From: Nitrospiria bacterium
GTDB taxonomy: Bacteria; Nitrospirota; Nitrospiria; JACQBZ01
Reading direction: 5' to 3'
DNA length: 64,000 nt
Assembly: GCA_035498035.1 (NCBI GenBank)
Contig: DATKAN010000061.1
Location: 19,720-83,719, forward strand
Shown here: piece by piece, positions 1-57,520 of the stretch
How positions within the stretch are numbered: position 1 is the first letter of the stretch
Layout: each line of letters opens with the position of its first letter
Made by a program: the position numbers and the translations under genes
The notes under the pieces: generated by a model
Database searches by the model: none
Told to the model about the DNA's origin: nothing
What the model saw: the letters and a program-made list of their open reading frames with translations, nothing else

Positions 1-1288
<1,288 letters not shown>

Positions 1289-1292
<4 letters not shown>

Positions 1293-31305: not shown

Positions 31306-31419
31306 GCAGAAATTTTACAGGTTGAAATAGCCTATGATATGATAAAAGAATGTCTTTATCCATTCGATCATGGAAGAATCCGTCCAGACCCTTTTATTCA
31401 TTTTTCCTTGAAAGGATCC

Positions 31420-34400: not shown

Positions 34401-37400
34401 TAACGAAGCCTGGCAGGTTCCCCTTGGACAGCCGGGGCTTAAAACGACCCCGACGCCGGCCGTCGGGTTCCGATCGGCCGGACTTCATCGATTGGAATTC
34501 AAGGCTGTCAAGGCTCATGGACCGGCGCTTCCCGTCGGCGACGGTCGGCGCTTCGGGACGGATTATGCCGCCGTCGCCCTTGGAACGGCGGATTACCTGG
34601 CCCGTCGCGTCAAGGAGCATGCGGATGGCCGCGTGCAGTTCGCCCACCAGATGCGGGACACGCAGGGCAGGGACGGAATCGCCAAGCTGGGCGCGGTCAA
34701 GGCCATGATCGCACGCATCGAAGCCTGGCACCTCCTCCTCACCGTGCTTTTGGAGGAGGGCATCGATCCCGGCCCGCCGGAGCATTTCCCGGGATGGCCG
34801 GACCTCTGCGCGACGGTCGCGACCCTGGCCTTCGGGCCCCAGGCGGGACAAATGGGATACGACGCCGGCCAGGTCTTCGGAGGGTTTGCCTATTCCGAGG
34901 ACGATCTTCTGTCCCGCGCCTACCGGGACAGCGCATTGTTTCGGTTTCTGCCCGCGGGCTTCGGCGCCGCGGAACGCCTGATGCGCCGCCTTCAGGAAAA
35001 TCGCGACGCCCTTGAATCCGCGGTCGCCTCAAGGAACCGTCTGTGGAATGAAGTTCGAAAGGGCCCCTTGGCCGACACGGCGACACGATGGGATGAAACG
35101 ACTAAGCGCTGGATGGGGCTCTCCTCCGAATGCGATCCGGCCCTCTCCGGCGAGGCGGGCGCATTGCTGTTGGGGGCGCACCGGGTTCTGTGCCAGGTGC
35201 AGCAGAAACTCGAGCAGGCGCTTCCGGTCGAAGGAGAGGCGGCCTCGAGCGCGGTCGTGATCCATCTGGCCGAACAGGCCGTGGACGCGATGGAGTTCCG
35301 GCGGCGAGACTCTCCCCTCCTGCCCATCGCGGTTTTTCCGGAAAGGCCCGCGGCCGAGCGGGTGGAACTGCCAATGTCATACGAGGCGATCTGCAATCCT
35401 TCGTCCGCCGGATCATCCCAGCCTTATCAATCCGGTCAGTATTTGCTCGCGCCCCTTGATCCCTCGGTCCGCTTCGTTCCCGAAGTCCAATTGCACGATC
35501 CCTCGCTTCGCGATCGATGGCAGGGCTGCACCGACTGGTTCCTCGAGCATATCTGGACGAAGAGTTTCGATGGAATGCATATCGAAAGATATGTGGAGAA
35601 AATCCACGGAATACCGGACGGCACGCTCGAAGGGTTCAAGAAGAACGGATATTTTTCAACGGTCATTCCCTCGGAGCTGGACGGCGGCGGCTGGTGGAAG
35701 GCGGAATATTATATCCTGACGACGGCGGCCGGCCGTTTCGGCGACGCCGGTTTGTTGCTTGTGATCATGGCCAGCACCAGCATCGGAACGACGCCGATGC
35801 TCCTCGGACTGGAAAAGGAGCTGCCGCTTGCGGTCCAGGAGCTGGAACCGCTGGCCCGCGATCCGCAACAGCTCGGAGAGATCGGGGATCGCTTGGACCG
35901 GCTGATCGCCGGAATGAAACGGCCGGACCCCGCCCGTCTGAAAAAGGGGTTCACGGAATTGATGTCCCTCGTCGATTCGCGGATCCGCCACACCCGCGTG
36001 GTGAAATACCTGGCGGCGAATTTTCTTAAGACTTTTTACGCCGCCGCCATCGCGGGTCAACGCCGGGACCTGGAAGGATTCCGCCGGGGTCTGGCGGAGG
36101 CCAAACCCCTGTTTGACATCCTGGCGCCGACCATCCGGCTGGCGGTGGACGAATTGCCGCGACGCGAACGGGCCCATCAATTTTTCTTAAAGAAACTCGG
36201 GCACGGAGGAATCAGCGCCTTTGCCTTGACCGAGCCGACGGCCGGCTCCGACACCGGCGGGGTGAAGACCACGGCCCGTCCGATGAGCCGCCCCCTGACC
36301 TCTCTCGAGGATGGGCGCTATCGTTTCAGCTTGACGAATGATGAAACCCCAAATCATCCTTCGCTGCGTTACATCATCGACGCCGACCGGGTCCGCTTCG
36401 ACGACCGGTCCGGTCCGTCGGGAATGGTTTACGAGCTTCCCACGGGAGAGGGCGTTCCGATCCGATGCGACGAGTACAACTATGACACGGATGAGGGCCT
36501 GCGCTATTATGTTTTTCGTGGCCAAAAAATATATTTTCATGACATCGCCCAGATCCGGGTCCGAGACGGAAAACCGGTCTACGATTTCTACGAATTAAAC
36601 GGCGCCAAGATGTGGATCACCAACGGTCGCGTGGCCACGCAGTACTGTCTCTACGCCCAGTCACCGGAAGGGGTGACGGGCTTCATGGTGGACCGCCATG
36701 CCGAGGGATTGAAGGTCGGGGCCGATGAGCGGAAGATGGGCCAACGAGGCTCGCCCACGAACGAGATCGCGATCGACCAGGTCCGAGTTCCCAAGGAATG
36801 TATCATCGGCTATGAAGGCCACGGTCAGGTCAACGCGCTCGAGACGCTCAATGTCGGCCGCTGCGGACTGGCCGTCGCCTCGATCACGCTGATGCGAAAG
36901 CTTCTCCTCGACGCCATCGAGCAGGTTCCCTCGACCCCGCGGCGCGATCGGCTCCTGGGAGAAGCCGCGGCCATCCTGTTCGGATCGGATTCGATGACCT
37001 TTCACCTGGTCGGCCTCTTTGATCGTCATACGACCGAATCGGTCCGGATGGAATCGGCGATCGCCAAGTATGTCTGCTCGGAGGATCTGCACGAAGTGAT
37101 GACGTTGATCGAGGAGGCCTACGGCCCCGTCGGCGTCACCGAACGATACCGCGTAGAAAAGCTCCGGCGCGACTCCCGGATCCTGAATATCTATGAAGGC
37201 ACGAACGAGGTTCAGCGCTTCCTCATCCTGAAAGATCTCGTCGCCCTGTCGAAGGAATGGAAGCCGATCCCGTTTCCGGAGAATTCGGAGCCTCCGTCCC
37301 GCCTGGCCTTCTGGAAAGAACTGCTTCGCGGACATGTCGCGGCCGCCGCGGAACCTTTGGGCGACACCGTCTGGATGGACGCGGTGCTTCAGCCCACCTT

Positions 37401-39489
37401 TTTCCTGTTGGCCGATATGGCCGGCGAGATCTTTCGTCTGGACTGTCTGACTTATCGCATCGGTTGGCTGAAAGACAATCGCGATAAGCTGGGAGAGGCC
37501 TATACCGACCCTCTTCTGATGCTGGGCGAACGGGCCGTATGGCGAACCGAACGACGGCTGGAACGGCTCGATCGACGTTATCGTCGGGAGGCGGAGCGAC
37601 CGGCGAAGGGCCTCTACGCCCCGGAGGCGATCGCGGCCGATGTCGCTCTGGAGCGGATGGGGAAGAAACCGACGGCCGAACCAAGGCCGGAGGGCCGACT
37701 GGAACGACCGCTTCGGATTCTCTGTCTGCTCCGACGGGTGGCCGATATCGCTCCCACCCCGCGGCTCAGAGAAGGACACCTGTCCGAAATCGTTTGGCGT
37801 TTAAACCCCTCCGACGAAGCCGCGGTCCGCATGGCGACCGGCTTAAAAAAGACCGGCGGCTCATCCAAGACGGTTCATATCGCATTGTCCGGGGGACCCG
37901 AAGCCGAACCCCAGCTCCGCTGGGCCCTGGGGTACGGGGCCGACGCGGCCTACCGCATCGACGCATCCGCGACGGCCGACGGCTCCGCTTGGATCGAGGC
38001 GATTACCCTTCTTGAAAAATCCGGAAAGTACGACCTGATTCTGACCGGGTCCGCCTCGGAAGACGGCGCCGAGGCCCTCGGGCCTTTCGTGGCCGGTGCC
38101 CTGTCGCGCCATTTTGGGAGGGCCTCTTCCATGGAGATCGTGGAGGAGGGCCGCGGGCTTGCGGTCCGGTCGGGCGCGGATGACTCGAAGATCAAGGTGC
38201 TTCCGACGGAGCCCTTGGTCCTGGCTTGGGAAGGATCCGACGCCCCCCGTCCCATGGAGATCAACCGATTGATCGAGGGGAGGCTGGCCCCCATCCGGCG
38301 CTTATCGGTTCAGGAGAAGGTGGTCCCCGAACGATTATCCCCCGCCCGTACGGTCGTCCGCAAAAGCGAAACGATCCGTGAGCTGGGCGGGGTGGCCGAG
38401 TACCTTGACGCCTATCGGGTCGGAGTCCGGGCGATGGAGGCCGAGCCCTATCGATCGAGGATCGATTCTATGCCCCTTCCGACCGGACCGGCGGTCTGGA
38501 CAATTATTGAAGCGCAGCAACGCAAGATGATTCCGGCCCTGCTGGGCGCGGCCAATTTCCTGGGACGGTCTCTGGAACTGAACAGCTATGCCGCGGTATT
38601 GGGGCCGGAGGAGACCTGGCCGCAGCTGAGCGGCCTGGCACAGGCCCGCGGCTTGACCGGGACGGTCTGCATTCCGGCTCCCGAAGGTCTGTTGACTGAA
38701 TCCGGCCGGATGGAATGGCTTGAAAACTTTTCAAGCGTTGTCCCGAATATCCGGATCGTCTGCGGCCCGCACTGGTCCGATGCCCTTGCGCATTTGTCGG
38801 GACGTATCAACGGCAAAGGCTCCCTGCTTTTCACCGAGGTGACCGAGATCGACCGACGCGAGGGCCTCTCGCTTTTTAAACCGGCCTACGGGGGGAAATT
38901 GCGGCGATCCGTCAACCCGGTCCTTTCGCAGACCCCCCATTTGCTTATGACGGTCTCCCCGACCGCCGATTTTCCGTCGGGCGAACCCTCGGCCCGATTC
39001 GCGGCCGGGAAGGCGGAGGTAAAAACAATCGCTGTCAATCCCGACCGCTTCGAATCCGTGCCTCCGCTTTCCCTGGATGACCTGGCCTCGGCCGAGGTGA
39101 TTATCGACATCGGATACGGCGTCCGGAATCAGGAAGGATTTCATCTCGTGGGCCGGCTCAAGGAGGCTATGGAACATTTGGGCCTGACGGTTCATCTCGG
39201 CGCGACGCGCAAAGTGACCCAAGATCTTAAACTCCTCCCGCTTTCGCACCAGATCGGCCAGACCGGGGCGAGGGTGAATCCGAAATTGATTCTCGCGCTG
39301 GGCATTTCCGGGGCGCCACAGCACATGGACTACATCGGCGACCGCGCCGTGATCTTCGCCTTCAACAAAGACCCCCAGGCCCCGCTCATGAAACTCAACG
39401 AAACCCGCCCGGCACCCGTCGTCCATCCGATCGTCGGCGATCTTTTCGTTACCATTCCGAAATTGATCGAGATGCTGTCGGCAAAATAA
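31420..39489 (+). CDS. Giant fusion: ETF:quinone oxidoreductase (FixC plus FixX-like 4Fe-4S) - degenerate ACAD - VLCAD-like acyl-CoA dehydrogenase - ETF-beta - ETF-alpha (~2,690 aa)
   Basis: One uninterrupted frame containing VIVIGCGPAG (31441); CPARVY...NCIKCESC (33331-33423); FALTEPTAGSD (~36226), LNGAKMWITNG (~36598), IYEGTNEVQR (~37189); ETF-beta LNPSDEAAV...ALGYGAD; ETF-alpha GATRK, QIGQTG, GISGAPQH, NKDPQAP. Start at ATG 31420 after AAAGGA. Confidence 0.85.
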   Translation: MKRFRFDVIVIGCGPAGASAAVTLARAGLSVLVLEAGVYAGAENWSGCVYFAENLAEPDAFGEAAVTAAPYERRLVRRGIFLHNGLDLVGLSYQNQDTFRHCYTVLRPVYDPYWADKVQTQGAMLLPQTTVTSLIRRGGRVVGVETEHGPVYADVTFIAEGDASHLIRRERLERVSEPHFMQGVKAVLSLPPTVIDERFHLSPGEGCAHEYLIRNGQMGGQTAHLNIGAFLYTNRDSLSFGYVVPLENLKEAYRGDHSRLLEWLRGLPHFKPLLKDAALSAYGTKLIRSGGLREQPLLVEDGLAVGGAAAGLGIDLPYPNFTGPSSASGLLFARAVRGLLHDGQSITADRLRQSYLEPLQASVYGQNAAFLSSWPEYLENSRTFFGRSADLACGLVHFLTQPNARLWQAARFLRGHLSIRTLREVFGDAAHMIRASGLKSALSASLKPYLLGRWTAALFRPGLKAHPGFQFRIEILDRPAVDIQKFPWPLRPVLTRLLPGLAEGMKIVYANDGRPLSEKFREASRSVLERLKITDGITLPVFVLFLATLALVSVLFDFIRYYLFRQPVEKVLGGPVTDYLHTQQTLRDLDQAKTVDSFEAKLATNSYRLGHRSHIRVLWPEELAHHGDLAQSSLWSVCPARVYQYDPPLVGRGVVMVNYENCIKCESCWHAAGDQVRWGRHTDHRLIYRPDSESIQILLGQKPPSSPPRPPREESGPRPDPKPGVSIQGPHREILAALSDSLASVFRAVCAFETAVEHIPASADATRREWPRKIGGMTTQRMGALASLLSSEKITEAFSVSGFSDRIRMEWHQILQEDGKDLELQLSAGQEFHALSAARRIREEVVRPMIEAVDAILPPSDGMMGDRDRRPPEPNLGDRIAALFPDRIVKEWENSPIPSDARERLHYLFMEYADRPTSLIRALSSTSPALGLLAAGHTEALTILRQTGQPLRGDLCAIDAQVLSIQNAKEGPIIDGVVELVPLSLSKGLLIVCDNEAWQVPLGQPGLKTTPTPAVGFRSAGLHRLEFKAVKAHGPALPVGDGRRFGTDYAAVALGTADYLARRVKEHADGRVQFAHQMRDTQGRDGIAKLGAVKAMIARIEAWHLLLTVLLEEGIDPGPPEHFPGWPDLCATVATLAFGPQAGQMGYDAGQVFGGFAYSEDDLLSRAYRDSALFRFLPAGFGAAERLMRRLQENRDALESAVASRNRLWNEVRKGPLADTATRWDETTKRWMGLSSECDPALSGEAGALLLGAHRVLCQVQQKLEQALPVEGEAASSAVVIHLAEQAVDAMEFRRRDSPLLPIAVFPERPAAERVELPMSYEAICNPSSAGSSQPYQSGQYLLAPLDPSVRFVPEVQLHDPSLRDRWQGCTDWFLEHIWTKSFDGMHIERYVEKIHGIPDGTLEGFKKNGYFSTVIPSELDGGGWWKAEYYILTTAAGRFGDAGLLLVIMASTSIGTTPMLLGLEKELPLAVQELEPLARDPQQLGEIGDRLDRLIAGMKRPDPARLKKGFTELMSLVDSRIRHTRVVKYLAANFLKTFYAAAIAGQRRDLEGFRRGLAEAKPLFDILAPTIRLAVDELPRRERAHQFFLKKLGHGGISAFALTEPTAGSDTGGVKTTARPMSRPLTSLEDGRYRFSLTNDETPNHPSLRYIIDADRVRFDDRSGPSGMVYELPTGEGVPIRCDEYNYDTDEGLRYYVFRGQKIYFHDIAQIRVRDGKPVYDFYELNGAKMWITNGRVATQYCLYAQSPEGVTGFMVDRHAEGLKVGADERKMGQRGSPTNEIAIDQVRVPKECIIGYEGHGQVNALETLNVGRCGLAVASITLMRKLLLDAIEQVPSTPRRDRLLGEAAAILFGSDSMTFHLVGLFDRHTTESVRMESAIAKYVCSEDLHEVMTLIEEAYGPVGVTERYRVEKLRRDSRILNIYEGTNEVQRFLILKDLVALSKEWKPIPFPENSEPPSRLAFWKELLRGHVAAAAEPLGDTVWMDAVLQPTFFLLADMAGEIFRLDCLTYRIGWLKDNRDKLGEAYTDPLLMLGERAVWRTERRLERLDRRYRREAERPAKGLYAPEAIAADVALERMGKKPTAEPRPEGRLERPLRILCLLRRVADIAPTPRLREGHLSEIVWRLNPSDEAAVRMATGLKKTGGSSKTVHIALSGGPEAEPQLRWALGYGADAAYRIDASATADGSAWIEAITLLEKSGKYDLILTGSASEDGAEALGPFVAGALSRHFGRASSMEIVEEGRGLAVRSGADDSKIKVLPTEPLVLAWEGSDAPRPMEINRLIEGRLAPIRRLSVQEKVVPERLSPARTVVRKSETIRELGGVAEYLDAYRVGVRAMEAEPYRSRIDSMPLPTGPAVWTIIEAQQRKMIPALLGAANFLGRSLELNSYAAVLGPEETWPQLSGLAQARGLTGTVCIPAPEGLLTESGRMEWLENFSSVVPNIRIVCGPHWSDALAHLSGRINGKGSLLFTEVTEIDRREGLSLFKPAYGGKLRRSVNPVLSQTPHLLMTVSPTADFPSGEPSARFAAGKAEVKTIAVNPDRFESVPPLSLDDLASAEVIIDIGYGVRNQEGFHLVGRLKEAMEHLGLTVHLGATRKVTQDLKLLPLSHQIGQTGARVNPKLILALGISGAPQHMDYIGDRAVIFAFNKDPQAPLMKLNETRPAPVVHPIVGDLFVTIPKLIEMLSAK

Positions 39490-39609: not shown

Positions 39610-40050
39610 ATGAATCCACCGATTCCCCTCCGATCCCCGCGCGAAATGCTGGGCGGGTATGTTTTTCTTCCGCGATTGATCGACAAGGTCCGGCTGCACG
39701 CGCAAGGAAAACTCCCGCCGGAATATGTCGGCAATCTCCTCAAACCGGGATTGACTCTGGACGGACGCTTGCTTACGTTTACCGGGCTGAATGCGGAGGC
39801 GTTGCGTCGTGCAATCCTGACCTCGAAGACGGACGTCGAGATCTTTGCCTGGGTCGAGCGACATGCAAAGCCCCATACTGAGGGCGAGAAGCGGCAATGG
39901 ATCGCGGAGATCGAGTCCTATCGGCCGAATCCGGAAACAGCCCGATGGCGAAGGGAGACTTACAAGGAATTGGCCGCCCGGATCGATCCGGCTACGCTGA
40001 GCCTGTTTGATCTGATCGACATGGACGAAGGCCGGATTCCCCCACCATGA
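39610..40050 (+). CDS. DUF5069-like protein
   Basis: LRSPREMLGGYVFLPRLIDKVRLHAQGKLPPEY...LDGRLLTFTG...FDLIDMDEGR (recalled family pattern). Confidence 0.7.
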   Translation: MNPPIPLRSPREMLGGYVFLPRLIDKVRLHAQGKLPPEYVGNLLKPGLTLDGRLLTFTGLNAEALRRAILTSKTDVEIFAWVERHAKPHTEGEKRQWIAEIESYRPNPETARWRRETYKELAARIDPATLSLFDLIDMDEGRIPPP

Positions 40051-40058
40051 AATAACCG

Positions 40059-41900
40059 CTACGGTATCCGGACGATGCGTAAGGAATCCGGAACAGTTTC
40101 CCAAGTAATGACCGGCCCTTTTTCCTGCGTTTTCATCAACCCTTTGTGATCTTTGCGACCGAAGTAACTCGTCCCCAACGGCAGTCTTTTAATCACCTTA
40201 AACCCGGCCTCGCTGTGACAGATCTCGCATCGTGTTCCCAACTCGCCCTCATGAATGTCGTCTTTCTGGTGGCATCGAACGCACATGCGGGACGTTTTTT
40301 GGGAAAAGAGCTGTTTGACATGGCATTGCTCGCATTTCAATTGACTGTGCTTCATTACGAGCGCATAACCGGTCTCCTTCGCGTGATCAAAATCATCCCG
40401 TTTCCAGGTCTTCGCGGTGTGACAAGCCTCGCATTTTTTCCCGAAGTGCCCCTTGTGATAGTCGTCTTTTATATGACAATCGTTACAGACCGAGGAGGTG
40501 TCCTTGAAAAGCGCCGTCTTATGACATTCGGAACAGCGAACATCCCGGTGTTTGTCCAGAAGCTTAAAATTCGTTTTCTGATGGTCGAATTTCTGAATGT
40601 CCTTCCATCCCTTTTCCGTATGGCAGGTCTCGCAGGTATCCCCCAATTGCCCCTTGTGCTTATCGTCAGGCCGATGACACGAGGCGCATCGACTCGGGAT
40701 CTTGTAGGCCTCCTGGACATGGCATTTCGAGCAGGGAACGTCCAGATGCTTCCCGATGAGCGGATAGTCCGTCTTCGAATGATCGAAACCGATTTTCTTC
40801 CAATCCACGGCCGAATGGCAACGGGCGCATTCCCGTCCCAGTTTGCCTTTGTGGTAATCGTCCTCTTTATGGCACTCGACACAGGTCTTCGGCGTCGATT
40901 TCATGTCCGGAGTTTTATGACATTTCAGGCATTCCACGTTTTGATGTTTTCCGACCAGATTAAACCGGGTCTTGTCGTGGTCGAATAAAACGTCCTTCCA
41001 CTCCTTCACCGTGTGACATTGCGCGCATTGGGGACCGAGGACGCCCTTATGCCGGTCGACACGCTTATGGCACTCGACGCAGGTCTTCGGCGTTTCCCGA
41101 AGCTGAGGCGTTTTATGGCATTTATTGCATTCCACCTGGCGATGGCTTCCCAGCAGTTTAAATTCGGTTTTGTCATGGTCAAAGACAATGGCCTTCCAAT
41201 CCTTCACCGTATGACAGCTCTCGCACTGCTTGCCCAGAACCCCTTTGTGCTTGTCCTTGTTAAGATGACAGCCCACGCAGGCCATCGGCGTCGCCTTGAA
41301 ATTATCGGAGGCGTGGCATTTTTCACACGCGACCGGAGCATGTTTCCCCTCCAACGGAAACCGCGTGCGGGAATGGTCGAAGCTGATCTTCTTCCATGCC
41401 TCCGAATTATGGCAACGCTCGCAGGACTTTCCCAGCGCCCCTTTGTGCTTATCCTTTTCAAGGTGGCAGGAAAAACAATCGTGGGGGGTTTCTCGGAACT
41501 TCGGTTTTAGGTGGCAGCGATCGCATTTCGTGGTTTGATGCTTCCCGGACAATTCGAATTGCGTCTTTCCGTGGTCGAAGTGGGCGGAATCAAATTGGGC
41601 GATATGGCTTTCACGTCCCTTGTGTTCCGTGTGGCAGGTCTCGCACCGGGAGGCGTCGGTTTTTCCGTGGAAACCGGTCTTCAGTTCGACATCTTTTTTG
41701 ACTTCCTTGTGACAGGCCAGACATTTATCGTAAAAAACCTTTTTGACGAGATCATGACAATCCAGGCAGCGTCCTTCAGATTTTTCGTGGACCCGGGAAA
41801 CCTTCCCGGGCATCACACCCTTCAGGATGTCGAGCGCGTCGGCCGTCCCAACGGTTGCGAGACACCACACGAAAATTGCAAGGCCGAATTTTCTCCACAT
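40059..41900 (-). CDS. Periplasmic 24-heme c-type cytochrome with seven ~66-aa triheme repeats
   Basis: 24 CXXCH motifs counted; Sec signal MWRKFGLAIFVWCLATVGTADA; repeat FDH..T.F.L.GKH-CXXCH-CXXCH-D.HKG.LG-CXXCH-W. Confidence 0.92.
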   Translation of the reverse strand: MWRKFGLAIFVWCLATVGTADALDILKGVMPGKVSRVHEKSEGRCLDCHDLVKKVFYDKCLACHKEVKKDVELKTGFHGKTDASRCETCHTEHKGRESHIAQFDSAHFDHGKTQFELSGKHQTTKCDRCHLKPKFRETPHDCFSCHLEKDKHKGALGKSCERCHNSEAWKKISFDHSRTRFPLEGKHAPVACEKCHASDNFKATPMACVGCHLNKDKHKGVLGKQCESCHTVKDWKAIVFDHDKTEFKLLGSHRQVECNKCHKTPQLRETPKTCVECHKRVDRHKGVLGPQCAQCHTVKEWKDVLFDHDKTRFNLVGKHQNVECLKCHKTPDMKSTPKTCVECHKEDDYHKGKLGRECARCHSAVDWKKIGFDHSKTDYPLIGKHLDVPCSKCHVQEAYKIPSRCASCHRPDDKHKGQLGDTCETCHTEKGWKDIQKFDHQKTNFKLLDKHRDVRCSECHKTALFKDTSSVCNDCHIKDDYHKGHFGKKCEACHTAKTWKRDDFDHAKETGYALVMKHSQLKCEQCHVKQLFSQKTSRMCVRCHQKDDIHEGELGTRCEICHSEAGFKVIKRLPLGTSYFGRKDHKGLMKTQEKGPVITWETVPDSLRIVRIP

Positions 41901-41928
41901 CGGGCGTCCCGGCGGTCTCAACAATAAC

Positions 41929-42702
41929 TCAGAATATCAATACGGCGGCGATATGAACAATCAACGTGAAGGCGAGAATCCAAATAAACGGTACATGAAG
42001 CTTGTGCCAGTAGGAAAAAAGGCTTGTTGTGGCCTCCAGGGCCGAAACGTTCTTCTCGAGACGAATCCGCTTCACAATCAGGAATTCCAACGAGTCCGAT
42101 GACTTCATGGGATTTATGACAGGCATCCGGCCCTGGGAGCGGGAAAGCCGCCTGAGCTGCCTTCTCACCTTTTTCTCAAGACGGTCCAATCGGATCAGCA
42201 GGAAGAACGGCCCGAAGAACCCACGTGATTTTTTCTTTTCTCGACGGCTGAAAAAAGTTTGGATGGTCTCGAGGATGGTTTGCGATTCTGAAACTCGTTG
42301 GGAGATATTTCGATCCAATTGTTCGATTTCCTGGATCATCTCCTTTAATGTGGCCCGTTCCCCCGATAGAGAAAACTGGAAATGCCGATAAATATAGCGA
42401 CCGAATACGCCGCTGGCCACAACGATCAGCATCGCATAAAAGGCGATGGCCGCGTTGGGGGACTTGATGAAAAAACCGGTGTGGTACACGACCAAGAGCG
42501 GCCCGAGGATGCATAGCGTGATGTGGATGTCCAACCATCGGCTCATGTTTCCCAGACTTCGGAGCACCCGGATCCTTTTACGCAGCGCATACAAGAAGGC
42601 GCCCAAAAACATCATGGTGGACCCAATAATCCCGAGCATCAACGGAACAAATGATTTCGGGGAATAGGGATGCCCTGAAAAATAAATCGGCAGGGCGACC
42701 AC
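41929..42702 (-). CDS. Inner-membrane protein with conserved-looking His residues in TM helices (cytochrome b-like, PCC3 IMP-type); start uncertain
   Basis: WLDIHITL, VVYHTGF, WHKLHVP, LIVHIAA in hydrophobic segments; located between the porin and cytochrome genes. Confidence 0.72.
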   Translation of the reverse strand: MVALPIYFSGHPYSPKSFVPLMLGIIGSTMMFLGAFLYALRKRIRVLRSLGNMSRWLDIHITLCILGPLLVVYHTGFFIKSPNAAIAFYAMLIVVASGVFGRYIYRHFQFSLSGERATLKEMIQEIEQLDRNISQRVSESQTILETIQTFFSRREKKKSRGFFGPFFLLIRLDRLEKKVRRQLRRLSRSQGRMPVINPMKSSDSLEFLIVKRIRLEKNVSALEATTSLFSYWHKLHVPFIWILAFTLIVHIAAVLIF

Positions 42703-42830
42703 CGCGGCGCATCCGAATATTAGAATTAAAAGTCTGATGGGACCCTCTTTTCCATCTCATGAATGGACGCTTAAAGCCAAGGACAGGCCCCAAAGCGTCT
42801 TTCAGCGTTTCGGAACAACACGACCGGGCC

Positions 42831-44666
42831 TCAGAACGGAATCGTGAGGCTGGTTCGGGTTTCCACCGTCGTCACCGTTCCGTTTGTGGTGTTGTTCTTA
42901 TCCATGTCGTAATCGGCGTCAAGGCTGAGCGAAATCCCGCTCCCGAAGGTGTAGATCAATGTGAATCCGGGGATGAGCCGCGTCGATTGGGTGGCGGAGG
43001 TTTTTATTTCAAAACGCTCCCAACGGCATCTCAAGGACGTTTGAAATTCTGGGCCCAAGTACTTTGAAAAGGTTCCCGTCACCGTTGTCGTTTGATAATC
43101 GGTCGTCGGCTGGAAAAGATAGAGCACTGTTCCAACCTCCGACCAGTGGAGCCCGTTTCGCTCGCTGAGAAAGACCGAATAGCGATCACCCTTCTTATCC
43201 GCCTTTCCGTCGTTGAAAACGATCGCCTGGAAGATCGTATGGGCGTACCTTAAATCGAGATGCCAGACCTTCGAAAAATCGACGGTGGTTCCCAGTCTGG
43301 CCTCCCGCGAATCGGTCGTATTTTTCAATGCGAGGGCCTGGAGATCGTTTCGTGTCAAAGTTTGCCGCGCAGCATCGAGCGACGTGATCGGCGGTGTTAT
43401 CAACGCGAGGGAGGGATCGATCAACGCCGTTTCGTAATCCAGAAAAGGATTCTTTCGATATTCGACCGCCGCGGAATACGAAGCGATCGCGTAATGGTAT
43501 TCAAAACTCAGTAATTTGTCGTTGAAATCTTTGAAGGCCAGGTCATAGTCCACTATGGAGGAAATGTTGATTGGATCATTCAACCAGTACCCGTTCAGTC
43601 CGACCGCATTTCGCGTTGAAAAACCGTTGTTGAACTCCTGGGTATAATAGATTTTTCCTCCAAGATGATAGAGATCATAGATCGAAAGGTAGGTATCGTA
43701 AAACAGGCGATCGTGCTGAATCTGGATTTTATTTCGATCGAACGGGTCGACCGCATAACCGACGCTGGTCGTCAAACCGAGCGTGTTGAAGGGCCGGAGA
43801 CCGAAGGCCAGTCCATCAAAGCGACTGAATAAGGTATTCCCGGAAGCCGGTTGTCGTCCGATGCGGAGGTCGACCATGGAACGAGGGTCGGACCAGTCCG
43901 CGAAAATTTTATTGAGTCTGTAGAAGGAGTTATCGGGGGTCAGAAAATCATCCGAATTCATACCGGAAAAATAGATTTTTAAATCCCCTCCGGCCGACTT
44001 CCTCCAGCGGAAATCCAAATATTCGTTCAAGCGGTTTTGTACCGTGGGAGTGGGGTCCGCCGGGGATGTTTGAGTATCATTATAATACTCCAACGTAAAA
44101 GCGCCGGAAAATTTTCCAAATGGGGCCGTTTCCTGTCGACGCACCGGAGAGAAAACCGGTTGAGGGGGGGTGCCTTGATTGCTGCCCGGGAGACTCTCCG
44201 ACTGAACCGCCGCACTCGACGGGCCGGTAGAAGGACCGTTCACAGAATCCGACCCGGTTGTCAGAGCCGCCAACCTCGCTTTTACTTCAGGGATATGTCT
44301 GCTTGAAGGAAAATTGCTGGTAAATAGCGTGTACTGCTGCACGGTGTCATTCCGTTTGCCCTGTTCATCCGCAATCCGGGCCAGGTACCATTGGGCCTCC
44401 TCCAAACCGGAGGGGTCCGTTTTCGTATCGATGAATCTATTGAAGATTACACGGGCCCGTTCTAAATCTCCTTTTTCAAACGCGTTGACCCCTTCCGCAA
44501 AATTTATCGACGGGCCGGAATCGGTTTTCAAAATGGGTTTGTTTCTACTCAAAGAACAACCGATCATCGTCAAAAAAAAAGTGGCCAACGCGAGACAAAA
44601 TGCCGCACGCGAGAGAAAAAAAACCCATCGTTCCACGGGGGCGTTAAAAACGACTGTAGTCAGCAT
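42831..44666 (-). CDS. Outer-membrane beta-barrel with N-terminal lipobox-like signal and TPR domain (porin of a porin-cytochrome conduit)
   Basis: FFLTMIG-C, TPR-like AQWYLARIA, Pro/Ser linker, alternating aromatic beta-strands, C-terminal ...SLTIPF. Start at ATG 44666 or GTG 44636. Confidence 0.72.
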   Translation of the reverse strand: MLTTVVFNAPVERWVFFLSRAAFCLALATFFLTMIGCSLSRNKPILKTDSGPSINFAEGVNAFEKGDLERARVIFNRFIDTKTDPSGLEEAQWYLARIADEQGKRNDTVQQYTLFTSNFPSSRHIPEVKARLAALTTGSDSVNGPSTGPSSAAVQSESLPGSNQGTPPQPVFSPVRRQETAPFGKFSGAFTLEYYNDTQTSPADPTPTVQNRLNEYLDFRWRKSAGGDLKIYFSGMNSDDFLTPDNSFYRLNKIFADWSDPRSMVDLRIGRQPASGNTLFSRFDGLAFGLRPFNTLGLTTSVGYAVDPFDRNKIQIQHDRLFYDTYLSIYDLYHLGGKIYYTQEFNNGFSTRNAVGLNGYWLNDPINISSIVDYDLAFKDFNDKLLSFEYHYAIASYSAAVEYRKNPFLDYETALIDPSLALITPPITSLDAARQTLTRNDLQALALKNTTDSREARLGTTVDFSKVWHLDLRYAHTIFQAIVFNDGKADKKGDRYSVFLSERNGLHWSEVGTVLYLFQPTTDYQTTTVTGTFSKYLGPEFQTSLRCRWERFEIKTSATQSTRLIPGFTLIYTFGSGISLSLDADYDMDKNNTTNGTVTTVETRTSLTIPF

Positions 44667-45807
44667 GCTCGTGACAATTGGCGCACATGGCATCAAGCGC
44701 GATGGACCGATGGTTCTCGTTCGGCCTGTAATCACGCGTGTGGCAGTTCGCGCACGCACCATACTGGGTGCCGTCCCGGTAAAACGGGGTCGAAAAATTT
44801 TGCGGGTGACAGACCGAGCAGTCCAGAGGAGCATGACCCCCGATTAATTTAGGGTTATCATGGGTCGCATAAGTGGCGGGGGTCCAGCCGGTCGTCTTAT
44901 GACAGGTGTCGCATTGAAGTGTGACCCCGGCGTGGTTTGCAGGCTTTCCGGTCGCCACCTGACCGTTGTGACAGTTCGAGCACTGCCCGGCCGCACTGGC
45001 ATCGTGAACATAGCCCGCGGGGGTCCATCCCGTCGTCTTATGACAGGTGTCGCACTGCGCCGTGGTCGGGACATGGTTCTGCGGCTTGCCAGTCGCATTT
45101 TGGCCGTTATGGCAGTTCGAGCACTGCCCGGCGGTGCTGGCATCGTGAACAAAACTCGTGGGGACCCATGCCTTCGTCTTATGACAGGTATCGCACTGCG
45201 CCGTGGTCGGGATGTGGTTCTGGGGCTTGCCCGTCGCCTTTTGGCCGTTGTGACAGTTCGAGCACTGCCCGGCCGCGCTGGCATCGTGGACATAGCCCGC
45301 GGGGGTCCATCCCGTCGTCTTATGACAGGTGTCGCACTGCGCCGTGGTCGGAACATGGTCCTGCGGCTTGCCCGTGGCCATCTGGCCGTTGTGACAGGTG
45401 GCGCACTGGCCGGCAACCAGAGCAAGATTATGATTAAAGGTTGCAGGTGACCAGGCATTGACGGAATGACAGACATTACATCCCTGATTCGTCATAATGT
45501 GATTCTGCGGCTTTCCATAAGAAATCTGATCATTATGGCAATTTTCACACTCCCTGGGAGTCGCACTATACTGCCCCCCCAAATGACACTGGGAGCATTT
45601 CAAGCCTCTATGCGCACCCAGAAGCTGAAAAGAGGTAGCATCATGATTGAAATTGGCTGGCGGCTCGTAATCGGCTGAACTTTTTGAGGACCTGCTCGTT
45701 GTTTCAGGTGTCGCCACTTGGTAGGAGAGAAAAACCATTCCCAAGATAATGCCTGTCAGAGCGGCCATAACAACAAAACCGGGTCTCCATATTGAAGACT
45801 GCCTCAT
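44644..45807 (-). CDS. 14-heme c-type cytochrome with tandem 47-aa diheme repeats
   Basis: 14 CXXCH motifs counted; N-terminal hydrophobic segment; SD AGGGGA before ATG 45807. Confidence 0.92.
   Translation of the reverse strand: MRQSSIWRPGFVVMAALTGIILGMVFLSYQVATPETTSRSSKSSADYEPPANFNHDATSFQLLGAHRGLKCSQCHLGGQYSATPRECENCHNDQISYGKPQNHIMTNQGCNVCHSVNAWSPATFNHNLALVAGQCATCHNGQMATGKPQDHVPTTAQCDTCHKTTGWTPAGYVHDASAAGQCSNCHNGQKATGKPQNHIPTTAQCDTCHKTKAWVPTSFVHDASTAGQCSNCHNGQNATGKPQNHVPTTAQCDTCHKTTGWTPAGYVHDASAAGQCSNCHNGQVATGKPANHAGVTLQCDTCHKTTGWTPATYATHDNPKLIGGHAPLDCSVCHPQNFSTPFYRDGTQYGACANCHTRDYRPNENHRSIALDAMCANCHEHADYSRF
44875..45414 (-). repeat. About four intragenic 141-bp tandem repeats
   Basis: GGGTCCATCCCGTCGTCTTATGACAGGTGTCGCACTGCGCCGTGGTCGG recurs at 45021 and 45303, with related copies at 44880 and 45162; spacing exactly 141 nt. 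Confidence 0.92.
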
Positions 45808-45829
45808 TTTGTTTTCCCCTATTTCAGAC

Positions 45830-45864
45830 AAAAAAATAGCCGCCAAAGGATTTCCTCTGGCGGC
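45830..45864 (-). terminator. Intrinsic terminator forming the riboswitch expression platform
   Basis: Minus strand GCCGCCAGAGG-AAAT-CCTTTGGCGGC-TATTTTTTT; the 5' arm overlaps the 3' strand of aptamer P1. Confidence 0.85.
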
Positions 45865-45952
45865 CCGGCGAGCATGTCCCAAACCTTAAATTCGGGAGTT
45901 AGCCCCGTTGCACTGCGTCCCCATCTTTCGATGGGTTTGCTCTGATCAAAGG
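45854..45952 (-). ncRNA. GEMM-I (c-di-GMP-I family) riboswitch aptamer, A20 variant (candidate 3',3'-cGAMP sensor)
   Basis: Minus strand CCTTTG ATCAGA GCAAA CCCATC GAAA GATGGG GACGCA GTGCAACGGGGCTAA CTCCCGAA..TTTGGGA CATGCTCGCCGGGCCGC CAGAGG. It shows a 6-bp P1 (CCUUUG/CAGAGG), a GAAA tetraloop P2, a CUAA/CAUG receptor, and C44, A47, G83, C92 equivalents. Confidence 0.85.
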
Positions 45953-45992
45953 TTTTTATTATTAAATTCTATTAATTTACACTTTTGGGAAA

Positions 45993-46020
45993 ATTTTACC
46001 AAATTTATTATATTTGTCAA
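45993..46020 (-). promoter_or_regulatory. Sigma70 promoter for the riboswitch / cytochrome operon
   Basis: Minus strand TTGACA-N16-TAAAAT with extended TGn; about 40 nt upstream of the aptamer. Confidence 0.65.
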
Positions 46021-46168: not shown

Positions 46169-47443
46169 ATGGCTGAGGCGGTGATCATTGAGGGTATCCG
46201 AACCCCGTTTGCGAGGTCGGGGTCGGTTTTCAAAGATATCCCGGCCGAGGAGTTGGGAAGACTCGCCGTCCACGAACTTATAGAGAAAACCGCACTGGAT
46301 CCGAAGATTGTCGATGAAGTCATCATTGGAACGGTCAGCCAGATGGTCGACACAGCCAACGTTTCGCGAGTCATCGCACAGCGCGCCGGCCTCCCCCCCC
46401 GCGTGCCGGCCTATACCGTCAACCGAAACTGCGCCTCGGGCCTGGAGGCGATCGGAAGCGGGTTGGAAAAGATTCGGGCGGGAATGGCCGATGTCGTCAT
46501 CGCCGGCGGTGTCGAGTCCATGAGCAATATTCCGATCTTCTATTATGGTAAGCGCATGACCGAAATACTCGTCGACGCTTCGAAGGCCAAAACGTTGGGG
46601 CAGAAGATTGCGAAGTTCGCGTCGCTGCGCCCCCGCGATCTGAAACCGAGCGTCATCAGCCAAACCGATCCGCTCAACGGCATGCGGATGGGGGACACGG
46701 CCGAGGTGCTGGCGAAAGAATTCGGGATCCCAAGAGAAGAGCAGGATGCCTTTGCCTTGATGAGCCATCAGCGGGCCGTCGCAGCCCGGTCCCGTCTTTC
46801 GGAAGAGATCACCCCCGTCTATCTTCCCCCCCGGTATGACACCGTGGTCAAGAACGATGCCGGCCCGCGGGAAAATCAAAAAATCGAGGATTTGGCCCGT
46901 CTGAAACCGGTTTTCGATCGTCGATACGGCTCGGTCACGGCCGGTAACGCATCCCCTCTGACGGACGGAGCCGCCGCACTTCTGATCATGAACGAGGAAA
47001 AGGCCCGTGCGATGGGGTTTAAGCCGCTTGGTCGCATTCGGAGCTATGCCTATGCCGGCCTGGATCCTGCGAGGATGGGGCTGGGACCGTCTTTTGCAAC
47101 CCCTTTGGCCCTGGACCGGGCCGGGATGAAATTTTCGGATATTGAACTGATCGAGATGAACGAAGCGTTCGCGGCGCAGATTCTGGCGAATGAAAAAGCA
47201 TTCGCCTCGAAAAAGTTCGCTCAGGAACATCTGGGACGCAACGAACCGATCGGGGTGATCGATCGAAGCCGGTTTAATGTCAACGGGGGTGCGATCGCTC
47301 TCGGCCATCCGCTCGGCGCGTCCGGCGCCCGCCTGATGCTGACCCTGCTATACGAGCTGCGACGGAGAAACCAATCCATCGGTTTGGCGACCCTTTGCGT
47401 TGGCGGTGGACAGGGCGCGGCCTGCATCGTTGAGAGGAGATAA
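46169..47443 (+). CDS. Acetyl-CoA C-acyltransferase (thiolase, FadI/FadA type)
   Basis: NRNCASG (catalytic Cys), MNEAFA, GHPLGASG, LCVGGGQG; SD GGAGGTG. Confidence 0.95.
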   Translation: MAEAVIIEGIRTPFARSGSVFKDIPAEELGRLAVHELIEKTALDPKIVDEVIIGTVSQMVDTANVSRVIAQRAGLPPRVPAYTVNRNCASGLEAIGSGLEKIRAGMADVVIAGGVESMSNIPIFYYGKRMTEILVDASKAKTLGQKIAKFASLRPRDLKPSVISQTDPLNGMRMGDTAEVLAKEFGIPREEQDAFALMSHQRAVAARSRLSEEITPVYLPPRYDTVVKNDAGPRENQKIEDLARLKPVFDRRYGSVTAGNASPLTDGAAALLIMNEEKARAMGFKPLGRIRSYAYAGLDPARMGLGPSFATPLALDRAGMKFSDIELIEMNEAFAAQILANEKAFASKKFAQEHLGRNEPIGVIDRSRFNVNGGAIALGHPLGASGARLMLTLLYELRRRNQSIGLATLCVGGGQGAACIVERR

Positions 47444-47449
47444 AAGATT

Positions 47450-49627
47450 ATGACCCCGGAGAAATGCCTTCGCACCACGATCGATGACCGCGGCCTTTGC
47501 CATGTGGAAATCGATGTCCCGGGAAAAACGGTCAATTTGATCTCGCCTCGGGTTCTTACGGAACTTGAGCAAGCGATTGATTCCATCCGGTCCGATCCCA
47601 GGATTAAAGGCGTCATTTTCCTGAGCCGTAAACCCGACCACTTTATCGGCGGGGCCGAGATCGACGTCCAACGATTCCTGAGCGATCTTGACGCCACATT
47701 GATTTTTATAAAACAAGGCCGCGATGTTTATCAAAGAATCGCCGAGCTCTCCGTCCCGACGTTGGCGGCGATCCATGGGGCCTGTCTGGGGGGGGGACTG
47801 GAATTGGCCTTGGCTTGCCGTTACCGTCTGGCGAGCGACCACCGGAAGACGCGTCTCGGCCTGCCGGAAGTCTTGCTCGGAATCTTCCCGGGCTGGGGCG
47901 GAATAACCCGGCTCCCCCGTCTGACCGGGCTTTCGGCGTCGCTTGACCTGCTCCTGACGGGCAAACAGCTCGATGCGAGGCGAGCTGAGCGAATCGGGTT
48001 GGTGGACCGCATCCTCACCTCCAAGGAGATCCAGATGCAGGCCGATACTTTTATGCTCGAGTGCCTAACGCAGGGGGCCTCGCTTCATCGGAAAATTCAA
48101 TCGGCCCGACGGCGCTCTCAAAACAAAATCCTGGCGCGCTTCTTGAACGAAACCCCTCTCGGCCGGGCTTTGGTATTTCATCAAGCCCGTAAAAACGTCA
48201 TGAGGCTCACCCTGGGACGCTATCCCGCTCCGCTGAAGATTATCGACGTGGTCCGAAAGGGAATCGGAGGTCCGCTCGAACGATCGTTGGAGCTCGAGCA
48301 GGAGGGGCTCCATGCGCTTATTCGTGAAGAAACCACGCAGAACCTGATCCATGTCTTTTCAATACGAAGGCACGCCGGAAAACTGCCAAAGGAGATTACC
48401 CCCTCCGATCTCGTCCCGCCGATTCGGAAAGTGGGTATCCTTGGGGCCGGCGTGATGGGCGCCGGCATAGCCCAATGGATGCTCCAACAGGAGATTCCGG
48501 TGCGCCTGAGAGACATTCACGAGGAGGCGATCGCAAAGGGTGTCAAGACCGTTAACGAGGCCTTTGAAAAGCAGGTCTCCCGGCGGAGAATCCGCCGGGA
48601 AGAAAAAGAGAACCGGATGCGACTTCTTTCAACCACCACAGACTATTCCGGTTTTTCGACGTGTGACCTGGTTATCGAGGCCGTGGCCGAAAAGATGGAA
48701 GTCAAACAACGGGTGATCCGCGACCTTCAAGAGGCGGCCGGGGATCGAGCGATCTTCGCCACAAACACCTCTTCGCTTTCGATCACGGACATGGCTGAGG
48801 GCGCAAAGAGACCGGACCGCGTATTGGGGCTTCATTTTTTCAATCCGGTCGCGCAGATGCCGCTCGTAGAGGTCGTTAAAGGAAAAATGACCTCCGACGA
48901 GACACTGGCCGCCGGTGTAGTCTTCGTCAAAAGAATCGGTAAAACGCCTCTGGTCGTTTCGGACAGTCCCGGCTTTCTGGTTAACCGGATCCTGATGGCC
49001 TACGGGAATGAGGCCGGGCTTCTTTTAGAAGAAGGGGCTACGGTCGATCGGGTGGACCGCGCCATGGAGGTTTTCGGAATGCCGATGGGTCCGTTTACCA
49101 TGATGGACGTTGTGGGGCTGGACATCGCCCATCACACAGCCGAATCGATCCGAACGTCCCTTCATCTGGATCCGGCCGAGCAATCCCGGATCGGCGATCG
49201 GTTATTCGGAGCCGGAAGATTTGGAAAAAAGACCGGACAGGGTCTCTATCGATACGAAGGCAGGGAAAAACGCCCCAACCCCGAATTGGACACGATGCTG
49301 GCGGCGATACGAAAAGAACGCGGACTGACTCCGCGAGCGAATATAAACGATCAAGAAATAACCGATCGTCTCGTGATGATCATGGTGAATACAGCCGCTT
49401 GGTGTCTCGAGAAGCGGATCGTTCAGTATCCGGGAGATGTCGATCTCGGAATGATAATAGGCGCTGGTTTCCCCCCATTTAGGGGAGGATTATTAAAGTA
49501 TTGTGATAAGATTGGAATTGGAAGGATTAAAGAAACGCTCGACCGTTATTCCCAATCCGCCGGTCCCCGCTTCTCTCCGGCTCAAATGATCACCGATCTT
49601 GCCAAGCAGGCCGATGGGTTTTATTAG
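47450..49627 (+). CDS. fadJ: Fatty-acid oxidation complex alpha subunit (enoyl-CoA hydratase plus 3-hydroxyacyl-CoA dehydrogenase, FadJ type)
   Basis: CLGGGLELALAC, GLPEVLLGIFPGWGG, GILGAGVMGAGIA, IEAVAEKMEVK, FATNTSSL, LHFFNPV, PGFLVNRIL. Confidence 0.92.
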   Translation: MTPEKCLRTTIDDRGLCHVEIDVPGKTVNLISPRVLTELEQAIDSIRSDPRIKGVIFLSRKPDHFIGGAEIDVQRFLSDLDATLIFIKQGRDVYQRIAELSVPTLAAIHGACLGGGLELALACRYRLASDHRKTRLGLPEVLLGIFPGWGGITRLPRLTGLSASLDLLLTGKQLDARRAERIGLVDRILTSKEIQMQADTFMLECLTQGASLHRKIQSARRRSQNKILARFLNETPLGRALVFHQARKNVMRLTLGRYPAPLKIIDVVRKGIGGPLERSLELEQEGLHALIREETTQNLIHVFSIRRHAGKLPKEITPSDLVPPIRKVGILGAGVMGAGIAQWMLQQEIPVRLRDIHEEAIAKGVKTVNEAFEKQVSRRRIRREEKENRMRLLSTTTDYSGFSTCDLVIEAVAEKMEVKQRVIRDLQEAAGDRAIFATNTSSLSITDMAEGAKRPDRVLGLHFFNPVAQMPLVEVVKGKMTSDETLAAGVVFVKRIGKTPLVVSDSPGFLVNRILMAYGNEAGLLLEEGATVDRVDRAMEVFGMPMGPFTMMDVVGLDIAHHTAESIRTSLHLDPAEQSRIGDRLFGAGRFGKKTGQGLYRYEGREKRPNPELDTMLAAIRKERGLTPRANINDQEITDRLVMIMVNTAAWCLEKRIVQYPGDVDLGMIIGAGFPPFRGGLLKYCDKIGIGRIKETLDRYSQSAGPRFSPAQMITDLAKQADGFY

Positions 49628-52235: not shown

Positions 52236-52273
52236 GGTGATCTCCTTTCCGTTTATACTTTTGATGGGGACTT

Positions 52274-56492: not shown

Positions 56493-56837
56493 CTATTCGT
56501 CTTCACGGTTCCGAAGGGAGAAAACCTGGGGATGATAATATTCACCCGTATCCAGAAACTCAACGCCCAGAAAAATCCCGTCGGCTTGTTTCGCAACCCA
56601 GCGGACTTTCCCGATGAGGACCTCATCAGCCCAAGACTCGTTTAGATCCCCCAATTGGCAATGAATCAGGAGGCGGTTATCAACATAAACGGGAAAATCC
56701 TCCATGATCGACAGACTTATACAGGAGCCGGCGTGAGATATATCTTTCACCATTCCGGAGAAACAGACCACATCCGTTGAAATATCGACTCGAAGCGGTC
56801 TGTATGGGGAAATGCGCGGGCCGGATCGCGGTTTCAT
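56493..56837 (-). CDS. PilZ-like domain protein
   Basis: PRISPYRP, DISHAG, GKVRWV, LGVEF. Confidence 0.7.
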   Translation of the reverse strand: MKPRSGPRISPYRPLRVDISTDVVCFSGMVKDISHAGSCISLSIMEDFPVYVDNRLLIHCQLGDLNESWADEVLIGKVRWVAKQADGIFLGVEFLDTGEYYHPQVFSLRNREDE

Positions 56838-57381: not shown

Positions 57382-57520
57382 CTTCAACGCTTTGTAATTT
57401 AAAGTCTTTTTTTATAAACCGCCCGCGGTTTGCCGCATTTACGGCATCGGCGCCTTATATAGGGCAGGATCAGATAACAAAAGATGGAATCCTGATTCAG
57501 TGCTTTGTATAATTGAATTC

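Follow-up and report, generated by a model that had tools for sequence, protein, structure and literature searches.

The locus considered here, four genes at 40059-45807 of a 64,000-nt stretch of contig DATKAN010000061.1 from a Nitrospiria bacterium (the window), raises the question of whether this organism encodes an electron path from its cytoplasmic membrane to the outside of the cell and, if so, in which direction the electrons would run and what would switch the path on. In transcriptional order, the genes are predicted to encode a multihaem c-type cytochrome (cytA), a haem-free β-barrel protein, an inner-membrane protein (IMP) and a second multihaem c-type cytochrome (cytB). The sequence comparisons described below support the assignment of this cluster to the PCC3 type of porin-cytochrome conduit, as a compact Nitrospirota version in which two gene pairs stand in the opposite order. 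The reading we consider probable, by a modest margin over an even chance, is that of a PCC3-type conduit produced from a single riboswitch-gated transcript, with outward electron flow as the most likely direction.

All four open reading frames (ORFs) are long, co-oriented on the minus strand and contained within 40059-45882, as established from the ORF list and a motif count. Together they hold 38 CXXCH motifs, 14 in cytA and 24 in cytB, with none in the two middle genes; CX3-4CH and CXXCK variants were absent from the four ORFs by the same count. An earlier interpretation made from the DNA letters without database searches (the sequence-only reading) had described a four-gene operon with these coordinates, haem counts and gene order, all of which proved correct. 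At least 13 independent Nitrospirota-like loci share the order cytA-barrel-IMP-cytB, and the arrangement is therefore not a matter of chance. A Nitrospirota-like host had also been proposed, which agrees with every named close homologue of the barrel protein and the IMP, all of them from Nitrospirota metagenome-assembled genomes (MAGs) labelled Nitrospirae bacterium, Nitrospiria or, in one case, Candidatus Manganitrophaceae.

In cytB, 48 of the 49 cysteines lie in CXXCH motifs, and the 53 histidines are enough for bis-His ligation of each haem. The protein is rich in K, D and E, has 25.5 aa per haem, consists of eight trihaem modules with a 66-aa period and begins with a Sec signal peptide (...GTADA/LD). 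More than 6300 homologues were found, and cytB is regarded as a candidate periplasm-spanning wire. All 28 cysteines of cytA fall in CXXCH motifs, and its 29 histidines would likewise suffice for bis-His ligation throughout. It has 27.6 aa per haem, a hydrophobic segment at the N-terminus and A, T, G, N, Q and S as the commonest residues other than the haem ligands; its architecture is a series of dihaem repeats 47 aa long, with 35% self-identity at that offset. cytA is a candidate cell-surface cytochrome that would form the outer terminus of the conduit; it is placed outside the cell because the PCC3 literature places the second cytochrome there. Pfam and NCBIfam searches with cytA and cytB returned generic c7/c3 domains only, and PDB sequence searches with the two proteins gave no match.

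The product of the second gene carries a lipoprotein signal, and a G-C-S lipobox is conserved across the barrel family. A profile search gave weak BamD/YbgF-type TPR matches to the barrel protein. An AlphaFold2 (AF2) model computed with 32 homologues (mean pLDDT 83; residues counted from the GTG start at 44636) was predicted to contain a signal helix, TPR-like helices (46-130), a disordered linker of low confidence (129-169) and 22 strands over residues 175-600, with a helical insert at 401-438. Foldseek searches with this model returned outer-membrane barrels, with AlgE at the top, FimD/PapC ushers and OccK/OprD (E 1e-12 to 1e-9), fold matches that are generic (TM-scores 0.3-0.5). A β-barrel porin had been claimed from the sequence; the 22-strand model and the outer-membrane matches favour that claim and give no cause to read the protein as something other than a porin. 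An exhaustive profile search with the barrel family yielded 240 representatives at E ≤ 1e-30, most of them 680-1080 aa long and provided with an extra N-terminal domain. As modelled, the combination of a lipid-anchored TPR domain with a 22-strand barrel would be a new point for a PCC3-type cluster.

The IMP contains the motifs WLDIH-x13-H (residues 56-74), SGVFG (97-101) and WHKLH-x13-H (232-250). Residues H60, H74, H236, H250, S97, G98, G101 and R102 and both tryptophans are invariant among 49 homologues of 27-85% identity, and the protein has the PCC3/PCC4 signature published by He et al. (2017), two WX3HX13H motifs and one SGXXG. Its AF2 model (pLDDT 84.7) shows four transmembrane (TM) helices, both His-bearing helices included, and the positive-inside rule places a helical loop of about 125 aa in the cytoplasm. 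On these features the IMP is predicted to be a di-haem-b transmembrane electron carrier. The description of this protein as His-rich in the sequence-only reading did not hold, as it has 7 His in 257 aa. Searches for the IMP at the DNA level returned little: plasmid tblastn gave weak matches only, in unrelated plasmids, and a degenerate DNA pattern of the invariant residues recovered three fragmented nanopore MAG loci only.

Homologous IMPs are 266-302 aa long. In the window a fifth, N-terminal helix is present in the DNA, out of frame, and the encoded product is the 257-aa protein with four TM helices. The ATG at 42755 opens MEKRVPSDF-stop, and the IMP frame upstream of the GTG at 42702 reads ...IRLLILIFGCAAV, matching the N-termini of homologues (MEKRAESKLVLLVLGCGLAIV...); a 1-nt deletion relative to all homologues is implied near 42740, at GGGTCCC. 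The frameshift sequence is identical in four assemblies from different samples (related loci L010-L013), and is therefore no local assembly error. With both His helices and all invariant residues kept, the truncated IMP may still insert and work.

PCC3 was defined by He et al. (2017) as a porin, an extracellular multihaem cytochrome, a periplasmic multihaem cytochrome and a conserved IMP; the extracellular cytochrome is rich in small residues and contains repeats, and the IMP has about 300 aa and five TM helices, with SGXXG on TM4 and WX3HX13H on TM3 and TM5 (PMC5566968). For the PCC3 of L. cholodnii SP-6, a 22-strand porin, an extracellular repeat period of 47 and a periplasmic cytochrome of 24 haems in 8 repeats, with a period of 66 and 27 aa per haem, were given (Suppl. 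Fig. 1 of PMC5566968). The window cluster equals these published values in strand number (22), both repeat periods (66 and 47) and periplasmic haems (24), and compares at 25.5 versus 27 aa per haem. Periplasmic PCC3 subunits have 21, 24 or 27 haems in repeated units, at a low ratio of about 26-27 aa per haem, and extracellular ones 10-35 (Hoover et al. 2023, PMC9900912; see also PMC5566968), and PCC3 copy 1 of Sideroxydans sp. CL21 has 24+14 haems (bioRxiv 10.1101/2025.02.27.639646), the same combination as here.

All four window proteins matched clustered counterparts in the betaproteobacterial MAGs L005, L006 and Rubrivivax L034, which were reached through cytB homologues. Each of the three has an IMP with the same motifs, a cytB homologue of 24-30 haems, cytA-like cytochromes and a large barrel protein. 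With the 30-haem protein of L006, cytA scored 1094 bits; cytB reached 676 bits with its 24-haem counterpart in L005 and 657 bits with its 27-haem counterpart in L034. The hidden Markov model (HMM) of the Nitrospirota barrel family matched the barrels of L006 (E 2.5e-34) and L034 (E 1.5e-33, HMM positions 41-573), and the matches span both the TPR and the barrel parts. The PCC3 architecture claimed by the sequence-only reading was thereby upheld in its four components, IMP signature, 66-aa and 47-aa repeats, 24 haems, 22 strands and four-protein homology to betaproteobacterial clusters.

The cluster also differs from its proteobacterial counterparts. The order is extracellular cytochrome-barrel-IMP-periplasmic cytochrome here and IMP-periplasmic cytochrome-extracellular cytochrome-barrel in the betaproteobacteria. 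At about 600 aa, the lipoprotein barrel has no counterpart of the N-terminal extension (150-540 aa) seen in the larger family; the IMP, with TM1 frameshifted, has 257 aa; and a riboswitch leader is present here, whereas none was found in the proteobacterial loci examined. No report linking PCC3 to Nitrospirota was found in the literature searched.

The leader of the operon provides a second line of evidence. A full-length GEMM-I aptamer was the sole Rfam match in the window, at 59.3 bits where the RF01051 gathering score is 35; it lies just beyond the coordinates of the sequence-only reading, which had not noticed it. About 40 nt upstream of the aptamer, in an AT-rich spacer, lies a promoter-like site, the best of the region; a terminator hairpin and then a ribosome-binding site and the cytA ATG at 45807 follow downstream. 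The terminator is present in the ligand-free minimum-free-energy fold of the leader. A competing partner for its 5′ arm, CAGAGG, is a CCUUUG that lies just 5′ of the aptamer; pairing of the two closes P1. A second CCUUUG is the 3′ arm of the terminator. As CAGAGG can pair in the terminator or in P1, an ON (antitermination) switch is predicted.

This design is shared by related loci. A20 GEMM-I aptamers scoring 50-61 bits precede cytA homologues in L014 (two copies, 3925-4013 and 5688-5776, each ahead of a cytochrome ORF), L020 (3750-3845), L021 (275-370) and L028 (756-849). The terminator/antiterminator arrangement recurs in both L014 copies, in L020 and in L028, with one compensatory CAAAGG variant. 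Model position 11, the equivalent of G20 in Vc2, is A in six of six copies; position 20 was mapped by the distance of 27 nt to the A after GACGC, which equals G20-A47 in Vc2 and A14-A41 in Gs1761 (PMC6140456, PMC5888326). A20 is the signature of cGAMP-binding GEMM-Ib aptamers, and the change A20G returns Gmet_0970 to c-di-GMP selectivity (PMC6456294). The leader aptamer thus carries the cGAMP-class (GEMM-Ib) signature, and its ligand would be 3′,3′-cGAMP and/or c-di-GMP.

Geobacter has A20 GEMM-Ib ON switches ahead of pgcA, omcAHG and omcST, operons for extracellular cytochromes, and needs cGAMP to grow on Fe(III) oxide particles (PMC6456294). The leader of the window resembles these switches in its A20 aptamer, its predicted terminator/antiterminator ON mechanism and its position upstream of extracellular multihaem cytochrome genes, and the two copies within locus L014 recall the tandem aptamers of Geobacter (PMC6456294); the host phylum and the regulated genes are different. 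The Geobacter precedent gives independent, regulatory-level support for a role of the window cluster in extracellular electron transfer.

One transcript from the gated promoter near 46000 is most likely, as the simplest model for the four genes. Packing is tight: if the barrel gene starts at ATG 44666 it shares 23 nt with cytA, and if it starts at GTG 44636 a gap of 7 nt separates the two. The IMP gene lies 128 nt beyond the barrel gene when counted to its GTG start and 75 nt when counted to the frameshifted ATG, and 28 nt separate IMP from cytB. The cluster (40001-46000) has a G+C content of 0.51-0.535, compared with 0.59-0.62 in the 32-40 kb flank and 0.57 in the 46-48 kb flank; further low-GC stretches occur at 26-30 kb and 50-58 kb, so low GC is not unique to the cluster. 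The features are listed in Table 1.

Table 1. Positions of the four genes and of the leader elements in the window (all on the minus strand).
Feature	Position	Strand	Start or evidence	Description
sigma-70-like promoter	45993-46020	-	consensus match only	TTGACA-16 nt-TAAAAT with extended TG, 11/12 consensus
GEMM-I (c-di-GMP-I, RF01051) aptamer	45856-45951	-	59.3 bits, E 5e-10, model 1-87	
Terminator hairpin	45830-45865	-		GGCCGCCAGAGG-AAAU-CCUUUGGCGGCU + U7; 12 bp; expression platform
cytA	44644-45807	-	ATG 45807	387 aa, 14-haem c-type cytochrome
Barrel gene	42831-44666	-	ATG 44666 or GTG 44636	haem-free
Frameshifted IMP N-terminus remnant	42703-42757	-	homologue comparison	first TM helix
IMP	41929-42702	-	GTG 42702	257 aa, inner-membrane protein
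cytB	40059-41900 or 41924	-	ATG 41900, after a signal-less TTG extension	613 aa, 24-haem c-type cytochrome

In the proposed mechanism, the leader would terminate transcription when no ligand is present; binding of a cyclic dinucleotide (3′,3′-cGAMP and/or c-di-GMP) would allow P1 to form, remove the 5′ arm of the terminator and permit read-through. Two b-haems on two parallel helices of the IMP would carry electrons across the cytoplasmic membrane, the Sec-exported cytB with its eight c7-like trihaem modules would carry them across the periplasm, the lipid-anchored TPR/22-strand barrel would provide the passage through the outer membrane, and the small-residue-rich 14-haem cytA would be the outer end. 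The electrons would come from quinol or from a reductant in the cytoplasm, and they would be taken up outside the cell by, for example, minerals of Fe(III)/Mn(IV), humics or a partner cell.

The direction of flow was judged from the neighbours of the IMP gene in relatives. More distant Nitrospirota clusters, with barrel proteins 41-50% identical, have two extra genes between barrel and IMP: a 410-aa flavoprotein with ferredoxin-NAD(+) reductases (HcaD, AndAa, PadH-type) as best matches at E ~1e-60, below the equivalog cut-offs, and a 72-aa single-cluster ferredoxin. These insertions occur at 8638-10140 of L016 and 3003-4568 of L018, and also in L017, L019, L026, L027 and L032. In five of the six clusters examined from other phyla, the neighbour of the IMP gene encodes a fusion of a membrane-anchored 2[4Fe-4S] domain with a TrxR/YpdA-like flavoprotein (L002 7370-8704, L003 12675-13967, L004 10977-12284, L005 6558-7938 and L034 6330-7628). 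Since two unrelated NAD(P)H-type modules occupy the same position, the cytoplasmic face of the IMP would take its electrons from a flavin/iron-sulphur (FeS) donor. Electrons passing inward to partners of such low potential would have to climb the redox gradient as well as the membrane potential, which is thermodynamically implausible; on this bioenergetic argument outward flow is favoured as the most likely direction. The sequence-only reading had proposed a potential wire from the quinone pool to the outside; the quinone end is hypothetical, and the relatives suggest instead a donor linked to NAD(P)H or ferredoxin. In this organism the donor could be a reductase encoded elsewhere or quinol, the latter as proposed by He et al. 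(PMC5566968).

Several observations weigh against this interpretation. PCC3 has been a purely bioinformatic proposal since 2017, and the likeness to L. cholodnii SP-6 was established from published values. A Foldseek search with the IMP model gave no significant match to NOX/FRE/MsrQ or cytochrome b (best E 0.17), and Pfam searches with the IMP gave no PF01794 match and a sub-threshold one only to cytochrome b561, PF01292 (E 0.019); fold and Pfam support for a family being absent, the prediction of di-haem binding therefore rests on the His motif. The IMP, deprived of its first TM helix by a frameshift fixed in four assemblies, may be impaired. Neither the reductase nor the ferredoxin genes are present in the window cluster, and no homologue of either was found in the 64 kb. 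A20 by itself is no proof of cGAMP selectivity, as natural A20 variants can be bispecific (PMC6140456).

Two further points of this kind bear directly on direction. PCC3 was first defined in Fe(II) oxidisers (PMC5566968), and a Candidatus Manganitrophaceae MAG has a homologous cluster (P0025, P0205); both are compatible with inward flow, in which the same machinery would pass electrons from extracellular Fe(II), Mn(II), a cathode or a partner cell through the IMP to the respiratory chain, the role assumed for PCC3 in Gallionellaceae. Neutrophilic Fe(II) oxidisers are the group in which PCC3 was discovered, Sideroxydans commonly has it, and the missing NAD(P)H-type reductase genes, which sister clusters have, also fit inward flow. 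All-bis-His haems are usually low-potential. The histidines of the window cytochromes are sufficient for such ligation, and low potentials would be poor for Mn(II) and marginal for Fe(II); moreover, NAD(P)H/ferredoxin-type partners recur beside the IMP in two non-homologous forms, the Geobacter riboswitch precedent concerns metal reduction genes, and terminal oxidase, bc1 and cupredoxin genes are absent next to the cluster. Inward flow is considered rather unlikely. The TPR-barrel could instead be an export or assembly pore, which secretes or anchors cytA or exports a matrix polymer in the manner of AlgK/AlgE, PgaA and BcsC, and the cyclic-dinucleotide control would then reflect biofilm-matrix formation. 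The best structural matches, AlgE and usher pores, point this way, as does the joining of a TPR domain to a barrel, which is the architecture of exopolysaccharide porins, and matrix and adhesion genes are the usual targets of riboswitches of the c-di-GMP class. The fold matches are, however, generic (TM-scores as given above), and across phyla the neighbours of the barrel gene are always genes for multihaem cytochromes and the IMP. An exopolysaccharide exporter is unlikely because polysaccharide genes are lacking nearby, with no glycosyltransferase, synthase or polymer-modifying gene in or beside the cluster or any related locus, and the export-pore explanation as a whole is given little credence.

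A different objection is that the locus is decaying, the IMP frameshift having uncoupled the conduit from the inner membrane and left a relic or a periplasmic/outer haem store. The 1-nt deletion does remove TM1 relative to all homologues, with an identical sequence in four assemblies, and the homologous IMPs are longer. Against decay, the remaining 257 codons are intact with every invariant residue present, the GTG start and four TM helices, both His-bearing ones among them, are retained, and the other three genes, the promoter and the riboswitch are intact. A frameshift fixed in a widespread population without further decay suggests that the change is tolerated, and a decaying locus is held to be improbable. 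To return to the favoured conduit with outward flow, a more specific version of it is advanced tentatively, as possible but short of probable: rather than serving mainly for iron oxidation, PCC3 would form the outer section of an NAD(P)H/ferredoxin:extracellular-acceptor oxidoreductase, NOX-like but split, in which cytoplasmic flavoprotein/FeS modules would feed the di-haem IMP and this the periplasm-spanning 24-haem wire, the whole being switched on in this Nitrospirota lineage by 3′,3′-cGAMP through GEMM-Ib.

The likeness to NOX, FRE, STEAP, MsrQ and bc1 cytochrome b consists of two His pairs with 13-residue spacing on two parallel TM helices, and related clusters pair the IMP with a cytoplasmic NAD(P)H flavoprotein, like a NOX split into separate proteins. 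Ferric-reductase-domain proteins differ in having six TM helices against the 4-5 of the IMP, whose large loop is predicted to be cytoplasmic. Membership of the IMP in the ferric-reductase-domain or cytochrome b families was considered and is unsupported, the HX13H pair motif being all that is held in common.

MtrCAB/MtoAB/PioAB follow the same plan as the window cluster, a wire through the outer membrane composed of a multihaem cytochrome in the periplasm, a barrel and, for Mtr, a cytochrome at the surface, but their cytochromes have 10 haems where those here have 24 and 14. The MtrB barrel has 26 strands as against 22, and the inner-membrane partner here is a b-haem-motif protein rather than one of the CymA/NapC type. 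A comparison with MtrCAB/MtoAB components, suggested with the sequence-only reading, produced no family-level match: the window proteins reached 41 bits with the DmsE/MtrA model TIGR03508 (cut-off 192) and had no match to the MtrB_PioB Pfam. MtrCAB/MtoAB, GSU2203 and HmcA assignments were rejected, the specific models scoring far below their cut-offs. AlgK/AlgE, PgaA and BcsC share with the window protein a periplasmic TPR module joined to an outer-membrane barrel, and AlgK is also a lipoprotein; they have 16-18 strands compared with 22, and the barrel studied here always stands in a cytochrome cluster. PCC_1-3 of Candidatus Manganitrophus are described as complexes of a porin with a 12-haem cytochrome, and PCC_1 as unique to Manganitrophaceae (PMC9040806). 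They are porin-cytochrome candidates of the same phylum that differ, by their description, from the 24 + 14 haems and IMP found here, and the window type is spread over other Nitrospirota.

As far as can be read from sequence, the new elements would be the A20 GEMM-I ON-switch, the TPR-barrel lipoprotein, the reductase and ferredoxin genes that accompany the IMP in relatives, the fixed frameshift and the permuted gene order. A conserved ON-riboswitch would name the physiological inducing signal and offers a simple reporter and binding assay. The two NAD(P)H-type modules beside the IMP predict a donor and an outward direction, contrary to the usual assumption of an Fe(II) oxidase. The compact 14+24-haem version, the 22-strand barrel of which is modelled with confidence, lends itself to expression and cryo-EM. 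If the favoured interpretation is true, electron exchange with minerals may extend to Nitrospirota other than the Mn- and nitrite-oxidising lineages, and A20-type riboswitch control of extracellular cytochromes would not be confined to Geobacter; if the split-NOX proposal with cGAMP as ligand is true, cGAMP control of exoelectrogenesis would reach a phylum beyond Geobacter.

The surroundings of the cluster (giant acyl-CoA dehydrogenase/electron-transfer flavoprotein (ETF) gene, thiolase and hydratase/dehydrogenase) belong to fatty-acid β-oxidation. A single 2716-aa ORF on the plus strand (31339-39489) carries at its N-terminus a FixC/ETF-QO-like FAD oxidoreductase that includes a hydrophobic helix and a CxxCxxC segment; fused to it are acyl-CoA dehydrogenase domains and domains resembling ETF beta and ETF alpha. 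This ORF runs towards the cytochrome cluster, which it also adjoins in L001 and L010 but not in L014. Given the convergent orientation and the absence of the gene from this place in L014, a functional link of the cluster to the fusion was considered and not adopted. A DUF5069 protein (E 1.7e-40), encoded at 39610-40050 on the plus strand, occupies the space between the giant ORF and cytB and ends 8 nt from the cytB stop. On the other side, thiolase and a fused enoyl-CoA hydratase/3-hydroxyacyl-CoA dehydrogenase (46169-49627, plus strand) are divergent from the cytochrome operon, with the same neighbours in L014.

Further away, the minus strand encodes a DUF3386 protein and a ChaN-like haem-binding (Cofac_haem_bdg) lipoprotein with a PDZ domain (51558-53509), a small PilZ-domain protein (56493-56837) of a family of c-di-GMP receptors, and a 421-aa membrane-anchored pentahaem cytochrome with weak c552/c554-type matches (58737-60002); a FIST-domain sensor protein is encoded on the plus strand at 57500-58708. 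In the Rubrivivax MAG L034, genes for E, F and G of a type II secretion system, which exports surface cytochromes in Shewanella, lie at 1-3022, a few kb upstream of the PCC3-type cluster.

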